A stretch of 24,423 nt of DNA from a virus (Duplodnaviria; Heunggongvirae; Uroviricota; Caudoviricetes): the IMG/VR virus record IMGVR_UViG_2681813316_000024, positions 1-24,423 of that record. One strand, given 5' to 3'. The stretch's first letter is position 1. Every line of letters starts with the position of its first letter. A program made the position numbers and the translations under genes. The notes beneath the pieces are model-generated. The model saw only the letters and a program-made list of their open reading frames with translations, was not told the origin of the DNA and made no database searches. Below are positions 1,861-24,423 of the stretch, piece after piece.

Positions 1861-2320
1861 TCAACGTAAGGCGTTCCTCGATATGCTGGCGTGGTCAGAG
1901 GGAACTGATAACGGACGGCAGAAAACCAGAAATCATGGTTATGACGTCATTGTTGGCGGAGAGCTATTCACTGATTACTCCGATCACCCTCGCAAACTTG
2001 TCACGCTAAACCCCAAACTCAAATCAACAGCAGCCGGACGTTACCAGCTTCTTTCCCGTTGGTGGGATGCCTATCGTAAGCAGCTTGGCCTGAAAGACTT
2101 CTCTCCGAAAAGCCAGGACGCTGTGGCACTGCAACAGATTAAAGAGCGTGGCGCTTTACCGATGATTGATCGCGGTGATATCCGTCAGGCTATCGACCGT
2201 TGCAGCAATATCTGGGCTTCACTGCCGGGCGCTGGTTATGGTCAGTTCGAGCATAAGGCTGACAACCTGATTGCAAAATTCAAAGAAGCAGGCGGAACGG
2301 TCAGAGAGATTGAGGTATGA
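1844..2320 (+). CDS. R: Endolysin, lytic transglycosylase (lambda R type)
   Basis: 158-aa ORF overlapping S stop; sequence [26 protein letters not shown]... matches recalled lambda R. Confidence 0.95.
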
Positions 2321-2754
2321 GCAGAGTAACCGCGATTATCTCCGCTCTGGTTATCTGCATCATCGTCTGCCTGTCATGGGCTGTTAATCATTACCGTGAT
2401 AACGCCATGACCTACAAAGAGCAGCGCGATAAAGCCACATCCACAATCGCTGACATGCAGAAGCGTCAACGTGATGTAGCTGAACTCGATGCCAGATACA
2501 CAAAGGAGCTTGCTGATGCTAACGCGACTATCGAAAGTCTCCGTGCTGATGTTTCTGCTGGGCGTAAGCGCCTGCAGGTCGCCGCCACCTGTGCAAAGTC
2601 AACGACCGGAGCCAGCGGCATGGGCGATGGAGAAAGCCCAAGACTTACAGCAGATGCTGAACTCAATTATTACCGTCTCCGAAGTGGAATCGACAGGATA
2701 ACCGCGCAGGTTAACTACCTGCAGGAATACATCAGGACGCAATGCCTTCGATGA
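2317..2754 (+). CDS. Rz: Inner-membrane spanin subunit (Rz, i-spanin)
   Basis: 145-aa ORF, ATGA overlap with R stop; N-terminal TM anchor [30 protein letters not shown] matches lambda Rz, remainder coiled-coil-like but divergent. Confidence 0.85.
2516..2701 (+). CDS. Rz1: Outer-membrane lipoprotein spanin subunit (Rz1, o-spanin), embedded in +1 frame inside Rz
   Basis: ATG at 2516 preceded by AAGGAG (2503-2508); signal peptide [20 protein letters not shown] with lipobox V-S-A-C; Pro-rich mature part; entirely nested in Rz. Confidence 0.7.
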
Positions 2755-3133
2755 TAGCGATAATTTTACTCATCATCCTTCACATCTGGCTCTGTAGACA
2801 GGGTGGTGATCACTTCTGGAGTGAATCCAGATTAAACATCTCATTGCTGATGCTTGATATTGAGCATCTGGCGCGCGGTAAGGGGCTGCGTTGAGATAAG
2901 AGCCAGTTCATTACAAAGCCTATCTACTGGTGGGCTTGATAATGAAACCGGAATTTATTCTGGGTAACCAGTTACGGCAGTACAGCGAAACAACCCAAGC
3001 CAGTAAGTGGGGAAATAACACTGGCAGCCACTGAAAGATGAACCTCCTGCCTTATGGCAAAAAAAGATTCTTTGTGGTGGCGGACTGATGGAAAGACATC
3101 CTAATCAAGCAACCACTCCACAGGGTCATAATT

Positions 3134-3514
3134 ATGAACGACCAGCAAATCGAAAAAGAAATCGTTGAGAAAGGCAAAACCGCTCCGAGAATCACTCCGC
3201 AGCACATCGAAGACGTGATTAAAAGCGAGCATTACTTTACTGCTTATGATGGACGTAATGGTGCCATTTCCAGCAACGAATATTGTGGCAGGGAAAAACC
3301 AGAAGAAGGCGATCGTGATTTATCACCATTGAAGTTGCTCACTTTCTGCGTACTGGTGCTGAAGAATGGCTTCACCGTCACCGGAGAGAGTGCCTGTGCA
3401 AGCCCGGAAAACTTTGATGCAGAAATTGGTCGGAAGATTGCCCGGCAAAATGCTGTAAACAAAATCTGGATGCTCGAAGGTTACTTGCTGAAGCAGAAGC
3501 TAAGCGAACAGTAG
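3134..3514 (+). CDS. Hypothetical phage protein (between lysis cassette and terminase)
   Basis: 126-aa ORF, same orientation as late operon; contains hydrophobic segment LLTFCVLVLKNGF; no catalytic motif recognised. Confidence 0.55.
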   Translation: MNDQQIEKEIVEKGKTAPRITPQHIEDVIKSEHYFTAYDGRNGAISSNEYCGREKPEEGDRDLSPLKLLTFCVLVLKNGFTVTGESACASPENFDAEIGRKIARQNAVNKIWMLEGYLLKQKLSEQ

Positions 3515-3617
3515 TTATTACAAAAGCCATTCCCTACAGAGTGGCTTTGATAATGGCTTATACCCTACACGGGATAACTTAACTGATATCCCTTTTAACG
3601 GATAAACGGAGCCAACA

Positions 3618-3860
3618 ATGGCAGAGATTATTCCCATGACTGAAGAACAGAAATTCAAGTTAGAAATTTACCGACTGCTATCTAAGAACAATTCAGCGGC
3701 AGAGGAAGCGTTTGCATTCATTGGGGCTGACCAGCTGAAACTGGAATTGTTCAAGTTGCACTACAACGATGGCGGTGCAAATCCAGACTTCACATCTCGC
3801 ACTATCGAAGCGGTGCGTAAATCGAAGGAAGCGTTAGACCTGTTCACTACCGGAGCATGA
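3618..3860 (+). CDS. Hypothetical small phage protein
   Basis: 80-aa ORF in late-operon orientation immediately upstream of small terminase; position recalls small ORFs preceding gene 3 in P22-like phages. Confidence 0.5.
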   Translation: MAEIIPMTEEQKFKLEIYRLLSKNNSAAEEAFAFIGADQLKLELFKLHYNDGGANPDFTSRTIEAVRKSKEALDLFTTGA

Positions 3861-15692: not shown

Positions 15693-17920
15693 TGAAAGTA
15701 ACTGCAAACGGTAAGACATTTACCTTCCCTGATGGTACGAGCACGGAAGATATTGGCACCGCCATTGATGAGTATTTTGCTGGTCAGGCTGTTCAGCAAC
15801 AAACAGTTAATCAGGCCAATAATGAACCAGCACGGGAAGAACCATCATTGATGCAACAAGCTGGCGATTGGCTCACTGGTGGTCAAAGTGCAGGGCAAAT
15901 TGCAGAACAGGCTGGTCGTGGTCTGGTAAACATACCATTTGACGTATTGCAGGGTGGCGCAAGTCTGATTAATGCAATCAGTCAGGGGCTTGGGGGGCCA
16001 AAAGTATTGGATGATGTTTATCGTCCAGTAGACAGACCGACAGACCCCTACGCGCAAGCTGGAGAGTCAATAGGCGGTTATCTTGTTCCTGGAGCAGGTG
16101 TAGCTGGAAACATGGTCATTGGTTCTCTCGCTGACGCGGCGAATCAACGGGGTGATTTTGCCGAAAATGCCGCTATTAATGCCGGACTTAACATTGCTAC
16201 GCATGGCCTGATAAATGGCGTTACCCGTGGTGTTCGTGGTGCATCAAATATAATTAGTGGCAATAAAACATCTGCACAGAGAGCGACCACTGCGCCAACA
16301 GAAACATCACCATTCTCAGGTGATGCCGCTGCAGCAACAAATCCTGAGATTCATGCCGCAGAGGCAAGAGTAGCACAAGGTGTACCAATGATGCCTGCGA
16401 CGAGGAACCCAGAGGAAGTCGTTCGCACAGTAGCAGCACAAAAAAGGCCAAATCTCGCTTCATCGCTTGATGAACTAGATATCAATCCTCAGGCTGAAGT
16501 TCTGGAGTCTGCTGAAAGGCTTAATGTTGATTCATTACTCCCTTCACACTTTTCCGGGAACGAGCAATACAAGGCAGTTGAGCAAGCAATCAAGTCCCGT
16601 GCGGGTTCTGCTCTACAGGTGCAGGAAAATGAAGCAATCAGGCAGCTAGCACAGGGCGCGGGGGAGATAATTGATCGCGTTTCCGGTGCAAAAGATGCTC
16701 TTGGTATGAGCGACAAGTTTATTGATACGGTCAATGGAAGAATGTCTGCGCTGATGAAACGAAGCGACCAGCTTTATCGCAATGTTGAAAAGGCGATGCC
16801 TGCAGGTGCAAAAATTGATGCGCCATCAACAAGGTCAATGCTCAAACAGGTGGCAGAAGATCTTGGCGGGATGAAAAACCTTGACCCTATTGAAAAGAGA
16901 GTCTTTCGGGCAGTTAATCCAGGCAAGAACGGCGCATTAACTTATGCAAATCTCAATAAGCAACGACGACTTGTTGGTGATGCACTTCATAAGAATTCTG
17001 GACCATATAAAGATGCTGATCGCGCTGCTTTATCGAGGCTTTACGGTTCGCTCGCCGATGATCAAAAGGCGGCGCTGTCAGAGACAAATGCATTACGTGA
17101 TTTTGAAGTTGCTCAGAGGCTTGTTCAGATGCGAAAAAGCATGGAAGAGCAAATGATTAATCTAACTGGCAGAACGCTGAACGGTGATGTTTCTCGCAAA
17201 GCAACTACAGCACTACAGGCAATGTCGAAAGGCGATGCCAAAGGATTTCGTGAATTGATGCAAAACACGCCGTCCAGGAAGCTAAGAACCGAGCTACTGG
17301 GAACAGGTCTTCGGGATATGCTTTCGAACGGAAAACGTGGCGCTGATTTTAATCCTGCAGGGTTTGCTGACTGGTATCAAAACATGTTAGCAAACGGGCA
17401 GATGCGCAATCTTGCCCGACATTTACCAAAAGAGACTATGTCAGGTCTGAACGATGTATATAAGGTCGCAAAGGCTATCAAAGACGCAAAATCTTACGAG
17501 ATAACTACAGGAAGACTAAACGAGTTCGTCAAACGGTTTAATCGCGTCACTGCGGCAAATGAATTTGTTGCTAACCATGCCCAACGCATTGGCACTGCGG
17601 TTGGTTCAACTGTGTCAGGACCGTTCAGTGCAGTAGGTGCTGTTGCTGGGTCAGAAATTGGGGCAAAAGTCGCCAGCAAAATCAGGGTGATGGGCGGCGC
17701 TGCATCAATGGAATCTGCAGAAAAGCTAATTAGCTCACCAGAATTCCAGAAAGCAGCAAGGCTGGCAGTAAAACAAGCACCAGAAAGCATCGTTGATACA
17801 ACTGTAAGACGCTCTTCTGCTTGGCGCTCGTTTTACAACTCACTTCCAGAATCAGATAAGAAAACCATATCAAGGCTAGGCATCATGTACTGGATGAACA
17901 GTGATGATAACCAGAAGTAA
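15689..17920 (+). CDS. Ejection protein (P22 gp16-like), extended
   Basis: 743-aa ORF overlapping gp20 stop; last gene before tailspike as in P22-like phages; Ala/Gly-rich segments. Confidence 0.75.
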
Positions 17921-18198
17921 CGGAAAGCCACGGATGGTTAGTTGCAGTCTTTTTTATATAAATCTCTGTCCATAAATCCTCCTGTTTACCAAAACTATAT
18001 CAAACTTTAACGCAATGCTGCGCAACTTAAGTGACTGTCAGGTTGATAACAGACACTCTTTTTTGCATGATTCCTTTAGACCATCACAATTGATGAAGAA
18101 TCATGAAAAGAAGAACTCTTCTAAAGTCTTTGCTCGGCCTGACGTCACTCTTACCAGTTAAGTTTGCAGCATCTCAAAACCTGCAAGGTAAAAGTATA

Positions 18199-20436
18199 AT
18201 GTCAGACATTACACCCAATGTTGTAGTGAGTATGCCTTCGCAACTCTTCACTATGGCTCGTTCTTTTAAAGCCGTAGCTAATGGAAAGATTTATATCGGG
18301 AAAATTGACACTGACCCGGTAAACACTGAAAACCAGATTCAGGTTTATGTAGAGAACGAAGATGGTTCTCACGTTCCTGTTTCGCAACCAATCATCATTA
18401 ACGCTGCTGGATATCCGGTATATAACGGACAGATTGCCAAATTCGTAACCGTGCAAGGCCATTCTATGGCTGTTTATGATGCGTATGGTGCGCAGCAGTT
18501 CTATTTTTCGAATGTGCTGAAGTATGACCCTGACCAACTCAGGCAAGATCTTGCATCTCAAGGAGGTGTTAATCTGGTAAACGGAGCTATCTCACAGGAA
18601 GATCTTGTTTTGCAGTCGATCACAAAAATTCCAAGTTATGATAATTCTAACGTAGTCCAGGCGTGGCGCGATAGTGTTGCGACCTACGGGTATGTTTACT
18701 TCTCTAATCATTCAAAAAATCAGATGGTGTACACCGTACCGTCTACAGCTGCTAACGCTTCTTTCCTTGCGAACAGTAAAGTAATCATTGATAAAAATGT
18801 CACCCTGAGATTCGACAGTGATCTGTACTCACTGTTTAAATCGTTGCAGTACGAGGGGGAGGGTACGTTTGAATTTACGCACCTGAACTTTAAAGCAACC
18901 GGTGGAGAAGTGGATTATCTGGCTAAGCAGGCCATCCTCAACCGAAACCCTATTCGCATGAAGCGAGTGGAATGGTCAGATTGTAAAGTTTATTCCATAA
19001 ATGGTGACACGTTCTTCTATGAAGGTGAAGTCACCATATCCTCAGATAGCGCAGCTATCTTCCCCTTAACTACTGACCGTACAACAGGCCTGTTCGCACC
19101 AATAGATATTGGAGAGCATATTTCTGCACATATTCGTATGGAATCTCAGGCCGCCTCAGAAGTTGGGATTGTTCTGCGATGCTCTGGTGGTTGGATGATG
19201 TTCTATGGGGCACCAGGTGCTACACAGTGGTCTTATAGACAGAAACCAATTGGTGGTCCAGTAGCAGAAGGAACTCCATTCCCGCTGCCAGGAGGTTTAC
19301 TGTCGTACGCCCCGGGCAAAGCAACCGTTGGCGTATCACTGCAAGGTAAAAACTGGGCGCAGATAACGATGAATGGCGTTGGGATACGTTTGCCCTTTGA
19401 TACTGCTGATGTAGGGGATGTATACGAAGTTGGGTTTGTTGCACTGACCACGGCATCTGGAGGTTCTGCGCGTGTAACTGGATTATGCAGCTACACCTCT
19501 GATAATGGCGTGCACGGTAAGCCTCCACTTAATATCCTTATCCACGGTGATAGTACAGCTGAGGATTTCATTTCCGCGTTCAGCTCGTACATTCCGCAAT
19601 TAATGGATGGAGCGAACGGCCACCGTTCACATAGCATTGTAAACAAGGCAGTTGCCGGACAGACAATGAGGCAACAGTTAGATCTCCTGAAGGCTCAGGG
19701 GCCGGGTGATGCTTACATCGTTATTATGGTTGCCGGAACTAACGAAGGGCAGGCAAACCAAAACGGCGATTATATGGCGTCATTGATAGATGAGTTTGTC
19801 TTATATTGCAATGGCCTTGGTCGTATCCCTGTTTGGGTTGAGCCGTGGATGTGGTATAGCCAGTCATTTATTGGAGGGGCTGGCCAGCCATCTTCTAACT
19901 ACGACGGTGTCGCAGAGTTGCGAGAAGCTGGTAAACGCCAGATGATGAAATATGGCAATAACGTCATTTGTGTAACAACAACTCACCAGCTCCCGGCCCC
20001 ATATCCAGAGTATTTCAATACGCAATACGACCCACTTCTGCGTGATGACATTCACCAAAGCCAGTTAGGGTATCGTCTGTATGCGGAAATTATCTGCTCT
20101 GCCATTATCGACTGGTGGTCGCGTGTTGATTACACGCCAAGAGCAGCTGTTCAATGGTGGGCTGGAACAAACGTAACAGTACAGGCACCGTCAAGTTTAA
20201 CTGCCAATTCAATTAATATTAAACTGGCAGCCACTTCATTTGCGAATGGTAATACTGTTCTAACGCTGCCAAGGTGGTGTAGACCAACAGTAACAAAAAA
20301 TGTCCCTGTACCGTTCACTGCTGATGGAATATCTTACGGTATGGCGATGGCAACAATAAGCGCATCAACCGGGTCGATAACAATTAATGGATCTACTACA
20401 GCCTCACCAATATTTTACATTGATGCTTCCTGGTAG
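18199..20436 (+). CDS. Tailspike: P22 gp9-like head-binding domain fused to C-terminal SGNH/GDSL esterase domain
   Basis: ATG 18199 gives [11 protein letters not shown]...[20 protein letters not shown]...VLKYDPDQ (P22 tailspike N-domain). C-terminal part has SGNH blocks: G450-D451-S452-T (19546-19557), VAGQT, A512-G-T-N515-E (19732-19746), D616-D-I-H619 (20044-20055). Confidence 0.85.
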
Positions 20437-20441
20437 AAAAA

Positions 20442-20456
20442 GGCCGCAATGCGGCC
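20442..20456. terminator. Bidirectional intrinsic terminator between convergent tailspike and SGNH genes
   Basis: GGCCG-CAATG-CGGCC hairpin; T-run on the - strand side (TTTTT) and weaker ATCTTTTA on the + side. Confidence 0.6.
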
Positions 20457-20461
20457 ATCTT

Positions 20462-21157
20462 TTACTTCACATGTTTATTAATCTCTCTCATCCAAACGGC
20501 ATAGCCATTTTTATTTAAATGCACTCCATCATCAAAGTACAATTCAGATTTTTTATCAGATAAAAAATCTGCAGGAACTTCTATTATATTGCAGTTAACT
20601 ATGCGACTACATGTTCTATCAATAATAGAGTTAATCATGCTTATTCTTGAATTGACATGGTCTACGTCTTTTCTTGCCCCGCTTATGATTGGCAAAACTT
20701 TTAATGCATAAATATTATCAACCTTTGATACACTCTTAAGCAGTTTGTCATAATCATCAAATATTTCCTCTTCGGTTTTCGCACCCATCGCATCGTTAAC
20801 TCCACCTTCAATTATCGCAGCTTTATATCCAGACGCCCCATAATTTTCTGATAGAGTTAGGATCTGATGTATAGAGTATCCTCCGACCCCCATATTAACA
20901 TATTTAAAGTTTAACCCATATGGTGACATTCCTTGTATGAGCGAGTCGCCATAAACCACAATGTCGCCGTCAGCTTGATTAGCATTCATTTTTTTAAAAT
21001 CTAGCATCACAGCCTGAAAGTCGTTAACTTTTTTTTGAGATAAATAATTTCTAATTGAACGAACAGACAATACTATAATAACTATTGCAATCAGAATAAA
21101 CAGCATTGCCAAATATTTATTTGCTTGAGACTTTCTATTTGTTTGTTTTGACTTCAT
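20462..21157 (-). CDS. Membrane-anchored SGNH/GDSL hydrolase (putative carbohydrate O-acetyl transfer/esterase domain protein)
   Basis: 231 aa; N-terminal TM helix YLAMLFILIAIVIIVLSV; block I VVYG70-D71-S72-L (Ser codon 20942-20944), block II GVGG, block III GGVND, block V DDGVHLN; good RBS AAGGAAA; AT-rich. Confidence 0.8.
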   Translation of the reverse strand: MKSKQTNRKSQANKYLAMLFILIAIVIIVLSVRSIRNYLSQKKVNDFQAVMLDFKKMNANQADGDIVVYGDSLIQGMSPYGLNFKYVNMGVGGYSIHQILTLSENYGASGYKAAIIEGGVNDAMGAKTEEEIFDDYDKLLKSVSKVDNIYALKVLPIISGARKDVDHVNSRISMINSIIDRTCSRIVNCNIIEVPADFLSDKKSELYFDDGVHLNKNGYAVWMREINKHVK

Positions 21158-21241
21158 TGCATTTTCCTTTTAATAAGGTTTAAGGTTAAAAATATATTTA
21201 CGCTTCAAATCAACGAATTGAGAAAATTATTCAGCCAACCA

Positions 21242-21520
21242 CTAACTAGACTTGCAATCTAATCTTATATATGATCTGAGTAAGAGTGTAAAAATCCGCT
21301 TAATCCTTCTTAAGTAAAAATCGGAAAAAGAAAATTTACCGCTATTTAAATTTTTAAAAATAATACTTGAAATTAAAAGGCTAGATATTATGAAAAATAA
21401 ATCAAACCCATTGAACTCTCCAGAAAATGCGCTTGGGAAAGCGTGAAACATCACAACAGCGACTGCTCTTAAACCATCTATACCAGCTCTATACTTTATC
21501 ATTTTTATTGTCCAATTCAT
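21242..21520 (-). pseudogene. Truncated N-terminal fragment of a second AT3-family acyltransferase
   Basis: 92-aa ORF with AT3 N-terminal signature YRAGIDGLRAVAVVMFHAF...GFDLFFIIS...FYLRRIKRIF, stops after about 90 residues; no convincing RBS. Confidence 0.5.
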
Positions 21521-21816
21521 CTACAGTGAAAGAGCAAAGAAAAACAATGCAATATATCTCATGTGACTACCCCTAAAATAAATTTAATGATAATAACATC
21601 ATGAGGATAAATTTAGAAGTGGGAAGATCGGAAATGCTCATTGAGCAGCAGAAAAAATATCACTGACTCTGTATACACATACAGTATTTTTTGTCTGTTA
21701 TTGATCATTGGATACTTGAGCCTAGCGTAAAAGTAATATGAATGATACAGTATGCTTATATAATTGATTTTTGCTCTCGGTGTAAGTTCGGATTGTATTA
21801 TATAACCAGAAAATAT

Positions 21817-21835
21817 CCCCAGAACTAAGCTGGGG
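21817..21835 (-). terminator. Candidate intrinsic terminator downstream of AT3 gene
   Basis: CCCCAG (21817-21822) / CTGGGG (21830-21835) inverted repeat with 7-nt loop; on - strand followed by AUAUUUU. Confidence 0.35.
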
Positions 21836-21849
21836 ATTCATGTCATATG

Positions 21850-22890
21850 TCAGCTTGCTAGTGCGATCTTCCTAAGCCTGTGACCTATATTTATAGATGG
21901 TTTTTCAATTACCTTATAAGAAATAGTTGCTAGTGCGATCGTAGCTAATAGGTATAAAACAAAAATAATAAAATTAAAATCTGTGTCCATGTCTATACTG
22001 ACAGATACAATCTCTAAAAAGAATGGGTGAATCAAGTATACAGAGTAACTTATCGATCCCAGGAAAACCAATAATCCTACATTCAATTTTACCCGTGTAG
22101 TGAGCAATAGCGTCAATACTATGCCTGTAAGATAGCTAGCAATATAGGAGGAAGCATTTTCCCCATGCCCATAGTCTTTATTGTAGGACATTAAGCAAAT
22201 CGGAGCAATCGCCACTAGGAATGTTATTAAAAATACAATGCACATATTTCTTTCTGATCTCGATGCAATCCCAATGCTCACTGAACGCCATAAGCTACCA
22301 AAGAACATTAATGACATAGCTAGCGGTATTGCCACAGGAACTTTTTTATCAAGAACGAATCTCACGTATGAGAAAGCAAGAGCGGTTGCAATAAGTCCTA
22401 TAGAAATTAAAAATAAAGAAACCTTACTCTTTAATAAATTTACTTTGAAAAGAAACGCACAGGAAGCATAGAAGAACAACTCAATTATTAGCGTCCAATA
22501 AACACCAAACATATCTGGAGATCTCAGTAAAGATTGAAGCATGGTAATATTAGACAACAGAGTTCTTATATCAAGTGGTCTATGAGTTACAAACAAAAAA
22601 GTAAAGGCCGCCAGAAATACTGAAAACCAGTAAGCGGGATATAGTCTAAAAAACCTTGATATAATGAACCCGGATATCGCTCTTTTCCCTTCCTTTAGGC
22701 TGTAAGGTATTACCATGCCACTTAACACAAAGAAGCAAACAACACCAACCTGACCAAAGTTAACATGCTTAAATAAAAAACTGTTATGCAATGGTGTTCG
22801 CTCTATGAAATGTGCACATGCAACCATCAGGGCTGCAAGTCCACGCAAAGAGTCTAGGAATTCTAGACGATTTCCATTTCTTATAGACAT
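21850..22890 (-). CDS. AT3-family integral-membrane acyltransferase (Oac-like putative O-antigen O-acetyltransferase)
   Basis: 346 aa, about 10 hydrophobic segments; N-terminal signature LDSLRGLAALMVACAHF...GVVCFFVLSGMVI...RFFRLYPAYW typical of acyltransferase family 3; between tailspike and int as oac is in Sf6; AT-rich. Confidence 0.85.
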   Translation of the reverse strand: MSIRNGNRLEFLDSLRGLAALMVACAHFIERTPLHNSFLFKHVNFGQVGVVCFFVLSGMVIPYSLKEGKRAISGFIISRFFRLYPAYWFSVFLAAFTFLFVTHRPLDIRTLLSNITMLQSLLRSPDMFGVYWTLIIELFFYASCAFLFKVNLLKSKVSLFLISIGLIATALAFSYVRFVLDKKVPVAIPLAMSLMFFGSLWRSVSIGIASRSERNMCIVFLITFLVAIAPICLMSYNKDYGHGENASSYIASYLTGIVLTLLLTTRVKLNVGLLVFLGSISYSVYLIHPFFLEIVSVSIDMDTDFNFIIFVLYLLATIALATISYKVIEKPSINIGHRLRKIALAS

Positions 22891-23267
22891 TAAAGATACC
22901 TAAGTTAAGTGTAGTAATAGGATTAATTTTAACAGCATGATTCTGTTGATCAATGGATAAGCAGCGTGTTTTGAAGTTGATCTGATTTTTACTATGATTA
23001 TATTGTGTTCTCGCACAGTATTTTATCGTAAGTGCACTATGGGCTTCTATCTCCAGCAGCAGAACTAGTTGAAGATAGTGTGTCAATCGACAAGAGCCTT
23101 ATTGCTCCAATCTCAGTCACGTACATGATGATATCCGTCAGGTCATTATCAACGAAGAGTGTTATGGTTAGTTTGATTATTGTGCGGTGATGTGAGAAAA
23201 ACTTAGAAAAACAAAGTCTTGCACTGGATTGCAAGGCTTTGCGCTATTCGATTGTGGTTGAGGCTGA

Positions 23268-24423
23268 TCACTTCACCTTTTCATCAAGCCAATCCGCCCA
23301 CCACTGCATCATTTCTCTGCGCTTATCGAGATACTGAGCGTGGTTGTAAATCCCGCGCACAGATCCGCCGTTGGCATGTGCCAGTTGCACTTCAATAGCG
23401 TCAGCAGGCCATTCGTGCTCGTTCATAATCGTGCTGAATTCATGCCTGAATCCGTGACCGCTTTCCAGACCTTCATAGCCGATTTGTTTGATCACAAGCA
23501 GTACAGCGTTCTGGCAAATTGGCTTCTTCTTATCGTTGCGCCCGGCAAAAACAAACTCTGACACTGGTTTAGTGATTGAGCTTAGCGTAGTGAGAAGTTC
23601 AATCACCTGGTCTGACATAGGAACCACATGAATTTTTCGACCCTTCATCACACTGGCGTCGATGGTGATAATCCTGTTTTCAAAATCGACGTTCTTCCAT
23701 AGCATGGAGCGAAGCTCTTTCGTTCTTAGGGCTGTGTAGCGCAAAACTTTAGTCGCAATGAGCGATACGATGCTCCCTGAAAATGTTGCCAGTGCTTTGT
23801 TGAATGCAGGGATCTGGTCTGCAGGAAGAAACGGGAAGTTCTTCTTGCGGTATCCCTTCATGGCGTCAGCAAGGTCAGGTGCCGGGTTATATTTAGCCCT
23901 ACCAGTGACAATAGCGTAACGGAAAACCTCGCCGCATCTTCTGCGGGCTTTATTTGCTCGCTCCATTGCACCGCGATCTTCAAATCTGCGGATTACTTCC
24001 AGTAGTTGCATCGGCTCAATATCCTGAATTTCAAGACCGCCGATGATGGGTAAAATGTCGTCATCAAACATTTTTGCAAGTTCATTTGCATAGCCCTGAC
24101 CAGACTTGCTTCTTGTGCTCGTACCATTCCTTGTAAATGGCGCTAAAGGAATTGTTGTTAGACGAAGCCTTTTTCGCCTTTACCGGATCGATGCCAACCG
24201 AGATGTCTTTCCTCGCAGTCCATGCTTTATCCCTTGCCTCTTGCAAAGTCATAAGCGGATATTTTCCGACGGTCAGGATTTTCTCCTTACCGTCAATCTT
24301 GTAGCGAAGCTGCCATACCTTTTTCCCTGACACAGGGACATAAAGGTACAGGCCATTACCATCGAGTAGGCGGTATGGTTTTTCTTTCGGCTTTGCTGCT
24401 TCAATCTGCTTAACGGTGAGCAT
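23268..24423 (-). CDS. int: Tyrosine integrase (P4-type, arm-binding N-domain), interrupted by a frameshift near 24072-24100; start codon at window edge
   Basis: Two consecutive - strand ORFs (24082..24423, 113 aa, arm-type domain; 23268..24071, 267 aa, catalytic domain with R...HGFRHEF...RGIYNHAQY Tyr region). The 267-aa frame read upstream gives ...QGYANELAKMFDD continuous with the N-terminal part. Confidence 0.75.

Follow-up and report, generated by a model that had tools for sequence, protein, structure and literature searches.

Gene content of the prophage end

The region described here lies within a DNA stretch of 24,423 nucleotides (the window) and forms the right-hand end of a P22-like prophage carried by Escherichia coli O88. 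Its features are as follows.

18199-20436, plus strand: P22-type tailspike of 745 residues, with a head-binding domain and a receptor-binding module
18199..18549, plus strand: N-terminal head-binding (particle-attachment) domain of the tailspike, residues 1-117 (Pfam PF09008)
18550..20436, plus strand: receptor-binding module 'RBD-A', tailspike residues 118-745 (delimited from homologues, SGNH blocks and the structural model)
20442..20456, no strand assigned: G+C-rich hairpin with T runs on either side, between the convergent tailspike and SGNH genes (terminator scan of both strands)
20462..21157, minus strand: small membrane-anchored SGNH protein, 231 aa, intact (Pfam PF13472, 9e-14)
21242..21520, minus strand: OafA-like AT3-SGNH pseudogene relic, 92 codons (weak Pfam match to the AT3 N-terminus)
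21815..21837, minus strand: terminator-like hairpin directly after the AT3 stop codon (terminator scan)
21850..22890, minus strand: stand-alone AT3 (acyltransferase-3) membrane protein, 346 aa, intact (Pfam PF01757; start codon at 22890)
22926..23006, minus strand: leader upstream of the AT3 gene (79% blastn identity over 77 nt to the leader of a 660-aa gene in locus L038)
23268..24423, minus strand: IntS-type integrase gene at the prophage end (Pfam matches to both halves)

The stretch from 18199 to 22890, which a preliminary description had singled out, is bounded by real genes, as these positions are the tailspike start and the minus-strand start codon of the AT3 gene. The mechanical open reading frame of the tailspike extends upstream to 18103, but the true start is placed at 18199, the point where the P22 head-binding domain begins and where RefSeq annotates the start in a prophage of 99.5% identity. 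The same description had predicted a conversion island that acylates a surface glycan. This under-described the island, which besides the intact Oac-like AT3 gene holds the 92-codon relic and the intact gene for the 231-aa SGNH protein. The hairpin at 20442..20456 has the sequence of a likely bidirectional terminator. The integrase, whose attachment site in relatives is argW, is split in the window into open reading frames of 113 and 267 aa by a 2-bp deletion near 24096 ('TA' missing in the alignment); strain PigCaeca_1, whose prophage is 99.5% identical, has an intact integrase gene (385 aa).

The AT3 protein matches Pfam Acyl_transf_3 (PF01757, 2.3e-30) and PHROG 3333, 'O-acetyltransferase' (5e-56), and keeps Arg16, His27, Arg79 and Arg82; 897 homologues were found. 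These matches predict an O-antigen O-acetyltransferase of the Oac type. Its gene occupies the slot between tailspike and integrase, with a G+C content of 31-36% versus ~50% in the phage, and a phage of another type has an 81% homologue by itself, with no SGNH neighbour, next to its tail-fibre genes. The relic corresponds to the 5' 230 nt of the intact 660-aa AT3+PF19040 gene of loci L038-41 (74% amino acid and 83% nucleotide identity), with ~1.67 kb absent from its middle and a deletion junction at ~21291-21296. The AT3 leader contains a promoter-like site at 22953-22926, which is a consensus match from a promoter scan. With a terminator-like site of its own behind it and the relic between it and the SGNH gene, the AT3 gene does not form an obvious operon with the latter in the window.

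The tailspike module and serogroup O88

Residues 1-113 of the tailspike match Pfam Head_binding (PF09008, 1.5e-66), residues 1-121 align with Sf6 gp14 (7sg7, 1.7e-64) and residues 1-115 with the P22 tailspike. The remainder, RBD-A, is made up of a small alpha/beta subdomain, a beta-sandwich, an SGNH esterase domain (approximately nt 19525-20124) and a C-terminal beta-sandwich; in the AlphaFold model (mean pLDDT 86) the receptor-binding part is thus a beta-sandwich plus SGNH esterase domain with no beta-helix. Beyond the head-binding part, Pfam reports a weak Lipase_GDSL_2 match below its cut-off (E = 0.0013). SGNH blocks I, II, III and V are nevertheless invariant among 41 homologues with identity down to 38%, and comprise GDS with Ser452 (codon at nt 19552-19554), Gly487, GTN with Asn515, and Asp616-x-x-His619 (His619 codon at nt 20053-20055).

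The closest Foldseek matches to the model are CE2 carbohydrate esterases (2waa, E = 3e-9). The best structural matches (2waa, 2wao) resemble the tailspike in having a beta-sandwich N-terminal to the SGNH catalytic domain, although CE2 enzymes are soluble plant-cell-wall esterases with 10-12% sequence identity to it, and many of them are without the triad Asp that the tailspike retains. Esterase activity of the tailspike is predicted from the invariant catalytic residues and this fold match. The module belongs to PHROG family 17606, annotated as of unknown function, and is found on at least five different N-terminal adaptors among the 78 homologues that carry it.

We surveyed serogroups across 5,426 complete E. 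coli genomes, 25 of which are O88. All RBD-A carriers among them (13/13) belong to serogroup O88 (P = 4e-30 for the 12 carriers found at high identity), which makes the O88 O antigen the likely receptor of the tailspike. The O88 O-antigen cluster carries two acetyltransferase genes of its own, of the hexapeptide-repeat type, and this gene content suggests that the O88 O antigen is natively O-acetylated.

Predicted acetylation genes adjoining the tailspike

At its N-terminus the small SGNH protein is basic; a single transmembrane helix (residues 17-35) and a long stalk helix follow, leading to an SGNH domain in the periplasm, as judged by family alignment, AlphaFold (pLDDT 88) and hydropathy. 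Its key residues in the family alignment are Ser72, Gly90, Asn121, Asp210/His213 and Cys183/Cys189. It shares 72% identity with the C-terminal domain of a 595-aa AT3-SGNH fusion protein encoded by a sister prophage. The dN/dS values of 0.07 and 0.15 indicate purifying selection, and the gene is convergent with the adjoining tailspike gene in all phage contexts seen. When the window is compared with locus L002, dS is 0.13 for the tailspike module and ~1.4 for the small SGNH gene; the two are therefore not diverging together, and recombination separates them. We regard this family linked to tailspikes as the most interesting lead from the locus.

Six non-orthologous arrangements, distributed over P22-like and siphovirus-like backbones, place RBD-A beside AT3 genes, periplasmic SGNH genes or both. 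These are the window type (RBD-A, small SGNH, AT3); RBD-A with the fused AT3-SGNH gene in a P22-like prophage; the same fusion with RBD-A in Tail_spike_N phages, including those of Enterobacter; RBD-A with the 660-aa AT3-SGNH gene and a small SGNH gene (L038-41); an operon of AT3-347 and SGNH-232 beside a 58%-identical RBD-A; and AT3-354 with a signal-peptide SGNH in O88 strain XJ55. The XJ55 island is interrupted by an IS5 insertion. Five further RBD-A arrangements, about half of the contexts, have no acetylation genes adjoining the tailspike.

A periplasmic SGNH gene adjoins the tailspike in 5/10 RBD-A contexts versus 1/19 for other P22-like tailspikes (crude Fisher P = 0.011), a rough comparison in that the RBD-A contexts are those found through the tailspike and that arrangement classes are set against individual records. 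AT3 genes are not commoner beside RBD-A, as other tailspike types carry an acyltransferase in 4/11 sampled argW P22-like prophages (Fisher P = 0.65). The coupling of tailspike and conversion genes is probably not accidental. Each part is of a known kind, and the pairing of esterase spike and acetylation genes recurs in unrelated phages. The suggestion that the two modules act on one polysaccharide is probably correct, given the confinement of RBD-A to O88 and the six arrangements.

Possible roles of the pairing

The explanation we favour, which we think has about as much chance of being right as wrong, is that a receptor-specific esterase tailspike is paired with a conversion cassette whose products change how the same glycan is acetylated, with exclusion as the outcome. 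We infer its functional steps, from the enzymatic activities and their substrate to which way the modification runs and what it does. RBD-A, as a CE2-like sandwich-plus-SGNH esterase rather than a beta-helix glycanase, would most likely bind the O88 O antigen and strip O-acetyl groups put on by the host's own O88 cluster. Deacetylation would be a receptor-processing step, as in phage G7C, which requires O-acetylated O antigen and whose SGNH tailspike gp63.1 removes acetyl from the O antigen of E. coli 4s. The low-G+C island, encoded on the opposite strand, would be a cassette for lysogenic conversion whose products act on the O88 O antigen in the periplasm: the AT3 protein may move acetyl across the inner membrane, and the small SGNH protein may be its transferase partner or itself act on acetyl groups. 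With acetylation altered, the O antigen of the lysogen would become a poor ligand or substrate for RBD-A tailspikes, leading to superinfection exclusion and fewer progeny lost on cell debris. Being both specific to one glycan, the tailspike module and the conversion genes would travel between backbones as neighbours. In the window the cassette appears to have been rebuilt, an older OafA-like AT3-SGNH gene having been internally deleted and an autonomous AT3-only gene lying upstream of its relic.

Some of the same observations fit a generic moron, in which the P22-like tailspike-integrase junction is a common landing site for O-antigen-modifying genes, AT3 is one more cassette, the small SGNH gene is the leftover of an older one and the shared O antigen is trivial. 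Acyltransferases occupy this slot beside other tailspikes at about the same rate, RBD-A occurs in five arrangements without any island, the AT3-346 family is autonomous elsewhere, and islands decay, as the relic and the IS5 insertion illustrate. We consider this account doubtful in view of the six non-orthologous AT3 and/or SGNH sets beside one tailspike module on different backbones, the purifying selection on the small SGNH gene, the presence of a tailspike gene beside it throughout the phage contexts seen, and the rarity of periplasmic SGNH genes beside other P22-like tailspikes. Equally doubtful in our judgement is a role of the small SGNH protein as a prophage periplasmic O-antigen deacetylase, removing the acetyl that the esterase tailspike needs for binding, with AT3, if present, adding a different acetyl; virion and lysogen would then share one chemistry, for entry and for exclusion. 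Relatives with ~40-46% identity adjoin tailspikes without a nearby AT3 gene, and in L038-41 the small SGNH gene occurs alongside a complete AT3-SGNH (PF19040) acetyltransferase, which should be able to do without it. The small protein retains all four canonical hydrolase blocks, its nearest matches of known structure, by sequence and by fold, are acetylhydrolases and sialate O-acetylesterases, and non-acetylated O antigen is unusable by G7C. The same domain (72-79% identity) is, however, fused to AT3 in sister phages, which is the OafA/OafB-type transferase architecture, and genes of distant relatives share an operon with AT3 genes or are translationally coupled to them. The transferase domain of S. 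aureus OatA is also among the fold matches, a canonical oxyanion hole is possible in transferases, and one clade adjoins a beta-helix-like tailspike without a detectable SGNH domain.

The preliminary description had proposed, as a hypothesis, a prophage that itself installs the modification its tailspike recognises or removes. In such a scheme the added acetyl would exclude rival O88 phages with glycanase spikes while the phage's own kind could still process the glycan, or the added group would create or reinforce its own receptor. Acetyl-adding and acetyl-removing functions are indeed repeatedly linked, and an esterase is a logical counter to acetyl-based exclusion. We nonetheless find self-installation improbable: the first infection is necessarily of a cell without the prophage genes, some O88 lysogens have this tailspike but no island, O88's own two acetyltransferases can supply the tailspike substrate, acyltransferases are about as frequent beside other tailspikes, and known conversion systems (Sf6 Oac, Hf4s) block the converting phage itself. 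The exclusion variant of that proposal is plausible. Least probable of all is that the tailspike SGNH domain does not deacetylate O antigen, being binding-only or acting on colanic acid, ECA or capsule, with no chemical link to the island. The sub-threshold Pfam match, the failure of our searches to find a characterised homologue and the lack of detectable sequence homology between its catalytic part and G7C gp63.1 would agree with this, whereas the catalytic residues invariant down to 38% identity and the strong match to CE2 esterase architecture argue for an enzyme, and the strict O88 restriction speaks against glycans common to many serogroups.

Several known systems resemble parts of the favoured arrangement of esterase spike and conversion cassette. 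G7C gp63.1, like the window spike in its predicted function, is a virion receptor-binding protein with an SGNH domain, and its target is a serotype-specific O-acetylated O antigen that is deacetylated rather than depolymerised. The catalytic parts nevertheless show no detectable sequence similarity (hhalign finds only the N-terminal adaptor region of other family members), the domain order differs, with the CE2-like sandwich preceding SGNH in the window spike, and the window module sits on a P22 head-binding domain in a temperate phage, whereas G7C is virulent and without conversion genes. By description, Sf6 Oac (OacA) and its phage AT3-only kin are like the window AT3, being ~340-aa membrane proteins near a P22-like integrase; according to a review of AT3 proteins, Sf6 oac adjoins the integrase gene and confers superinfection immunity, and the O-antigen acetylation blocks the phage's own spike. 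In Sf6 that spike is an endorhamnosidase, in contrast to the predicted esterase here, and the window island adds a separate membrane-anchored SGNH gene and the AT3-SGNH relic. Salmonella OafA and OafB, the latter protecting against a P22-like phage, join AT3 to a periplasmic SGNH domain, with an additional transmembrane helix; sister prophages that have the window's tailspike encode a fusion of this kind in their 595-aa protein. The window differs in that AT3 and SGNH are encoded separately, that its AT3 is not related to the one in the fusion (26% identity), and that the small SGNH is of the PF13472 type as opposed to the PF19040 type of OafA.

Klebsiella prophages, also temperate, encode receptor-binding proteins with SGNH esterase domains (PLoS Biol 2026, PMC13123978). 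The available part of that study finds acetyltransferases in 5-30% of prophages and proposes acetylation and deacetylation as a layer of phage competition; it concerns capsules rather than O antigen, and reports neither linkage of esterase spikes to AT3/SGNH genes nor a family of small membrane SGNH proteins. Salmonella phage epsilon15, which abolishes O-acetylation of the group E1 O antigen, likewise shows acetyl-related conversion in the lysogen, and a 2026 preprint, in its accessible portion, reports an esterase domain on the epsilon15 tailspike. It differs in being proposed to inhibit the host acetyltransferase, with no AT3/SGNH enzyme encoded in that view.

The tailspike and its predicted esterase module

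The window covers the late genes and the right end of a P22-like prophage. Its plus strand carries the terminase, portal, scaffold, coat and ejection-protein ORFs up to position 17920, and genes for P22_gp7, Inj_translocase and P22_gp16 precede identical tailspikes elsewhere. In the Escherichia coli strain PigCaeca_1, which carries a 99.5% identical copy, the prophage ends at tRNA-Arg (argW), beside yfdC. The features discussed below are the following.

18199-20436, plus strand: tailspike gene, with receptor-binding module RBD-A (residues 118-745)
20442-20456: hairpin between the convergent tailspike and small SGNH genes (consensus match only)
20462-21157, minus strand: small SGNH gene
21242-21520, minus strand: relic ORF of 92 codons
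21850-22890, minus strand: AT3 gene, encoding AT3-346
23268-24071 and 24082-24423: integrase gene, broken into ORFs of 267 and 113 aa

The limits of 18199 and 22890 given in the preliminary description were exact, the former being the true start of the tailspike and the latter the AT3 start codon on the minus strand. The longest tailspike ORF opens 96 nt further upstream, with an ATG at 18103, and its 32 additional residues (18103-18198) resemble a signal peptide; annotation and domain limits place the start at 18199. No immI region (mnt/arc/ant) separates the tailspike from the gp16-like ejection gene in the window (17920-18199), nor in three prophages with an identical tailspike (L019, L020 and L024); three others (L003, L016 and L022) encode Arc, Mnt and an antirepressor at this position. 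Compared with the intact intS (385 aa) of the PigCaeca_1 prophage, the integrase gene is broken by a 2-bp deletion (TA, at about 24096), which reflects either a prophage copy unable to excise or a sequencing error.

The tailspike begins with a P22-like head-binding domain (residues 1-113; PF09008, 1.5e-66). The solved Sf6 and P22 spikes align to it up to about residue 121, and none of the solved spikes matches it beyond that point; for the remaining 628 residues, RBD-A, we found no solved relative by sequence. This module is assigned to a PHROG that carries no functional label. A tblastn search with it matched only four phage records, and a protein search recovered 78 homologues, in which at least five different N-terminal adaptors precede the module (P22 head-binding, TSP1/Gp66, T7 fibre, tail-collar and Calx-beta).

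RBD-A contains the blocks of an SGNH/GDSL hydrolase, namely Ser452 within GDS, Gly487, Asn515 within GTN, and Asp616-x-x-His619, all invariant among 41 homologues down to 38% identity. The match of the tailspike to PF13472 (E = 0.0013, 19.7 bits) lies under the 32.9-bit cut-off, and a precomputed match to the same family is present in many RBD-A homologues. An AlphaFold model (pLDDT 86) consists of a small alpha/beta subdomain, a beta-sandwich, a three-layer alpha/beta/alpha SGNH domain and a C-terminal beta-sandwich. Foldseek relates this fold to CE2 and other GDSL esterases with a probability of 1.0, the best matches being the CE2 carbohydrate esterases 2waa (3e-9), 7tog, 2wab and 2wao, which share the sandwich-plus-SGNH layout of the model. 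Taken together, the invariant signature, the model and the CE2 fold matches make an active esterase a well-supported prediction for this tailspike.

Two other assignments were rejected. The model has no right-handed parallel beta-helix of the receptor-binding/glycanase type, and the solved spikes match no further than residue 121; a glycanase spike of the beta-helix type bearing an extra esterase was rejected on these grounds. The catalytic part showed no homology to the known SGNH esterase tailspike G7C gp63.1 either, as hhalign with the 41-sequence profile aligned the N-terminal adaptor segment only; another SGNH-type spike, RBD-C, likewise matches gp63.1 in its adaptor only.

The O88 O antigen as likely receptor

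We typed the host of the closest complete genome, whose O-antigen cluster is annotated as O88 (wzx, wzy). A search with the O88 wzy identified 25 of 5,426 genomes at 99.5% identity or higher. RBD-A was found in 12 genomes, every one of them within this set of 25 (P = 4e-30), and a more sensitive search added one genome, strain XJ55, with a 72% identical copy and likewise O88. Since every carrier is O88, the module is O88-specific regardless of the phage that carries it, and the O88 O antigen is the likely receptor on this co-occurrence.

The O88 cluster encodes rmlBAC, an additional epimerase/reductase, manCB and two hexapeptide-repeat acetyltransferases. From this gene content we infer a native O-acetylation of O88, the O-acetyl groups plausibly being supplied by the cluster itself. 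In PigCaeca_1, itself an O88 host, the first acetyltransferase gene is separated from galF by an ISEc1 transposase gene (NZ_CP039298.1 79800-102000, at 1510-2646 of the extracted locus L015). The O88 strain NADC1036 carries the same RBD-A gene both on the chromosome and on a 38.7-kb replicon (NZ_CP076267.1, positions 2021-3666), which could represent an excised phage genome or a plasmid-like one.

Two Logan contigs (L042/L043; protein P0014) carry a 91% identical RBD-A next to a fused AT3-SGNH gene. NCBI gives this RBD-A protein a multispecies Enterobacter name, indicating that the O88-type spike module crosses genera; an O antigen of Enterobacter may thus be related to that of O88.

The putative acetylation island and its linkage to the spike

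The minus-strand island at 20462-22890 has a G+C content of 31-36%, against about 50%, and holds three items: an AT3-only gene, a relic ORF and an SGNH gene. Its position between tailspike and integrase, its opposite strand and its low G+C content are consistent with a serotype-conversion/superinfection-exclusion module. AT3-346 is a full-length AT3 protein (PF01757, 106 bits against a 31-bit cut-off, residues 10-325 of 346, 2.3e-30) that matches PHROG 3333, 'O-acetyltransferase'. Its N-terminal Arg16 and His27 are at least 90% conserved, and Arg79 and Arg82 of an RxxR-type motif are invariant in 23 homologues; we take these four to be catalytic residues, an assignment that draws in part on the AT3 review. 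On these features the protein is predicted to be an O-antigen O-acetyltransferase of the Oac type. The gene has promoter-like and terminator-like sites of its own (consensus matches only), and an 81% identical homologue stands alone by myovirus-type tail-fibre genes, so that AT3-346 behaves as an autonomous cassette.

The 92-codon ORF shares 83% nucleotide identity with the 5' 230 nt of a 660-aa AT3-SGNH (PF19040) gene that is intact at four loci (L038-41), and homology restarts at the final 90 nt of that gene, indicating that about 1.67 kb have been deleted. The leader 5' of the window AT3 gene matches the leader 5' of the 660-aa gene, which suggests that the AT3-only gene sits upstream of an older, now deleted gene. 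The ORF was also considered as the N-terminus of the fused AT3-SGNH gene of a sister prophage (L002), to which it has no similarity. A single operon of AT3-346 and the small SGNH is unsupported here, given the terminator-like site after the AT3 gene, the intervening relic and the occurrence of the AT3 family alone elsewhere. In OafA and OafB the AT3 domain, an 11th transmembrane helix and the SGNH domain form one polypeptide, whereas in the window the AT3 protein (346 aa) and the SGNH protein (231 aa, with its own transmembrane helix) are encoded by separate genes 692 bp apart, with the relic between them; unlike the window, sister prophages do contain the fusion.

RBD-A adjoins acetylation genes in six arrangements of non-orthologous parts.

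Arrangement 1: the window type, on many contigs
Arrangement 2: P22-like prophage with a fused AT3-SGNH gene
Arrangement 3: Tail_spike_N siphovirus-like phages, Enterobacter included, with the same fusion as arrangement 2
Arrangement 4: the 660-aa AT3-SGNH gene with a small SGNH gene
Arrangement 5: AT3-347 and SGNH-232, 77 bp between them, beside a 58% identical RBD-A
Arrangement 6: O88 strain XJ55, with AT3-354, an IS5 element and a signal-peptide SGNH

The XJ55 signal-peptide SGNH shares 48% identity with its counterpart in arrangement 5 and 29% with the small SGNH of the window. The insertion in this strain, an IS5-family ISKpn26 between the AT3 and SGNH genes by the RBD-A spike (L060, 8995-9975), is a further sign that the islands are being rearranged. 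In two metagenome assemblies (QZLX01001110.1, L051 4255-6494; QZLZ01000012.1, L054 5722-7961) with a window-type prophage, the tailspike is split into ORFs of 195 and 570 aa while the AT3 and SGNH genes are intact. Five other arrangements have RBD-A without acetylation neighbors.

P22-like prophage at argW
P22-like prophages at the bio locus
Contig of another phage type
Prophages with lysis genes after the tail protein
Shewanella P2-like fibre

A periplasmic SGNH gene, by contrast with AT3, does seem enriched, being present in 5 of 10 RBD-A contexts and by 1 of 19 other P22-like spikes (P = 0.011), a crude count in that it mixes arrangement classes with individual records and its RBD-A contexts are those found via the spike. 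The wider survey of contexts is small, and some of its loci were located by way of the SGNH gene. The dS between the window and L002 is 0.13 for the spike and about 1.4 for the SGNH, hence the two have not co-diverged; by this measure the spike and SGNH genes are recombining neighbors that form no fixed unit.

A proposed mechanism and the small SGNH family

The preliminary description had noted a putative O-acetyltransferase and a putative esterase tailspike in the same phage, and raised the hypothesis that the prophage installs the modification its own spike recognizes or removes, which could serve receptor specificity or the exclusion of other phages. The coupling of spike and island gains from the results in two respects, a probably shared target glycan (RBD-A being confined to O88) and a linkage that, with six arrangements, is probably non-accidental. 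The stronger claim, installation of the group that the spike itself recognizes, is not supported. Infection must start on a prophage-free cell, some O88 lysogens carry this spike but no island, the O88 cluster has acetyltransferase genes of its own, and AT3 genes are not significantly enriched by this tailspike over the background, being equally common by other spikes (4 of 11 prophages with other spike types; P = 0.65).

We propose instead as the most likely mechanism, at roughly even odds on our reading of the combined analysis, that the spike would act as a receptor-specific esterase on the O antigen, that the neighboring cassette would re-pattern the O-acetylation of that same O antigen, and that a lysogen so altered would resist spikes of the RBD-A type. 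This mechanism is modelled on Sf6 Oac and Salmonella OafB (AT3 review) and shares the logic shown for Hf4s and G7C.

Taken singly, each part belongs to a known kind. Esterase spikes are described for G7C, for Acinetobacter and Pectobacterium phages and for Klebsiella prophages. Temperate Klebsiella phages are reported to favor SGNH receptor-binding proteins, and acetylation and deacetylation have been proposed to shape temperate-phage competition (PMC13123978); AT3 conversion genes by the integrase gene are also known (AT3 review). New are the uncharacterized, CE2-like spike module confined to O88, the repeated physical association of this module with AT3 and SGNH genes, whether these are fused, split or relics, a tailspike-linked family of small SGNH proteins, and a natural series bearing on whether AT3-only proteins need an SGNH partner. 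If the model is true, O-acetyl groups on one O antigen would be both the virion's handle and the lysogen's exclusion currency, with phages swapping a 'reader/eraser' (the esterase spike) and a 'writer' (the AT3 and SGNH genes) as neighbors. It would extend the Klebsiella SGNH observation (PMC13123978) to the O antigens of E. coli and add a specific genetic linkage, offer an O88-specific esterase spike as a typing or engineering module, and give the AT3 field fused, split and partner-less AT3/SGNH combinations on one acceptor glycan.

The small SGNH protein of the window is intact (231 aa). Its N-terminus is basic, residues 17-35 form its only transmembrane helix, and it also has a long stalk helix, the canonical blocks (Ser72, Gly90, Asn121 and Asp210/His213) and two invariant cysteines; these features suggest an enzyme of the periplasm that is anchored in the membrane. 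The same slot of the sister prophage, whose spike is 97% identical, encodes the fused 595-aa AT3-SGNH protein, and the C-terminal domain of this fusion shares 72% identity with the small SGNH; dN/dS is 0.07 against this fusion and 0.15 against another stand-alone copy. The family, which includes both membrane- and signal-anchored proteins, corresponds to PHROG 14008, without functional label, and in all the phage contexts seen its genes are convergent with a tailspike gene. An SGNH alignment scan of species-representative genomes returned nothing, and scans of viral and metagenome data returned only 11 and 9 loci, respectively, so this survey of contexts is small. Some clade members adjoin the RBD-C spike, with or without a 611-aa AT3-SGNH gene, and others a beta-helix-like spike, RBD-B, with no AT3 gene nearby.

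We suggest tentatively, and with less confidence than the exclusion mechanism, that these proteins form a tailspike-linked family of conversion factors not described before, acting either as AT3 partners or as periplasmic O-antigen deacetylases. Whether AT3-only O-acetyltransferases need an SGNH partner is a standing question of the AT3 field (AT3 review), and the small SGNH may be that missing partner, a separately encoded transferase, as AT3-SGNH fusions and AT3 operons would favor. It may otherwise be a deacetylase erasing the acetyl group that esterase-type spikes need, a reading favored by its AT3-less contexts, by its coexistence with a complete AT3-SGNH gene and by its esterase-like nearest structures; in the PDB profile and fold searches, which did not decide between the two readings, acetylhydrolases rank at the top and the OatA transferase domain is also near. 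The motifs are uninformative between esterase and transferase, because transferases can have a canonical oxyanion hole. Deacetylase activity, if true, would be the first case of serotype conversion by deacetylation, and would share its chemistry with the virion spike.

One distant relative of the small SGNH, a 247-aa protein with 27% identity, is encoded outside phages in an apparently ordinary polysaccharide locus (L058, 823-2719; Ga0105357_10003102). There its gene is translationally coupled to a gene for a 386-aa AT3 protein, with an overlap of 8 nt at the AT3 start, and the pair looks like a split operon in the order SGNH, then AT3.
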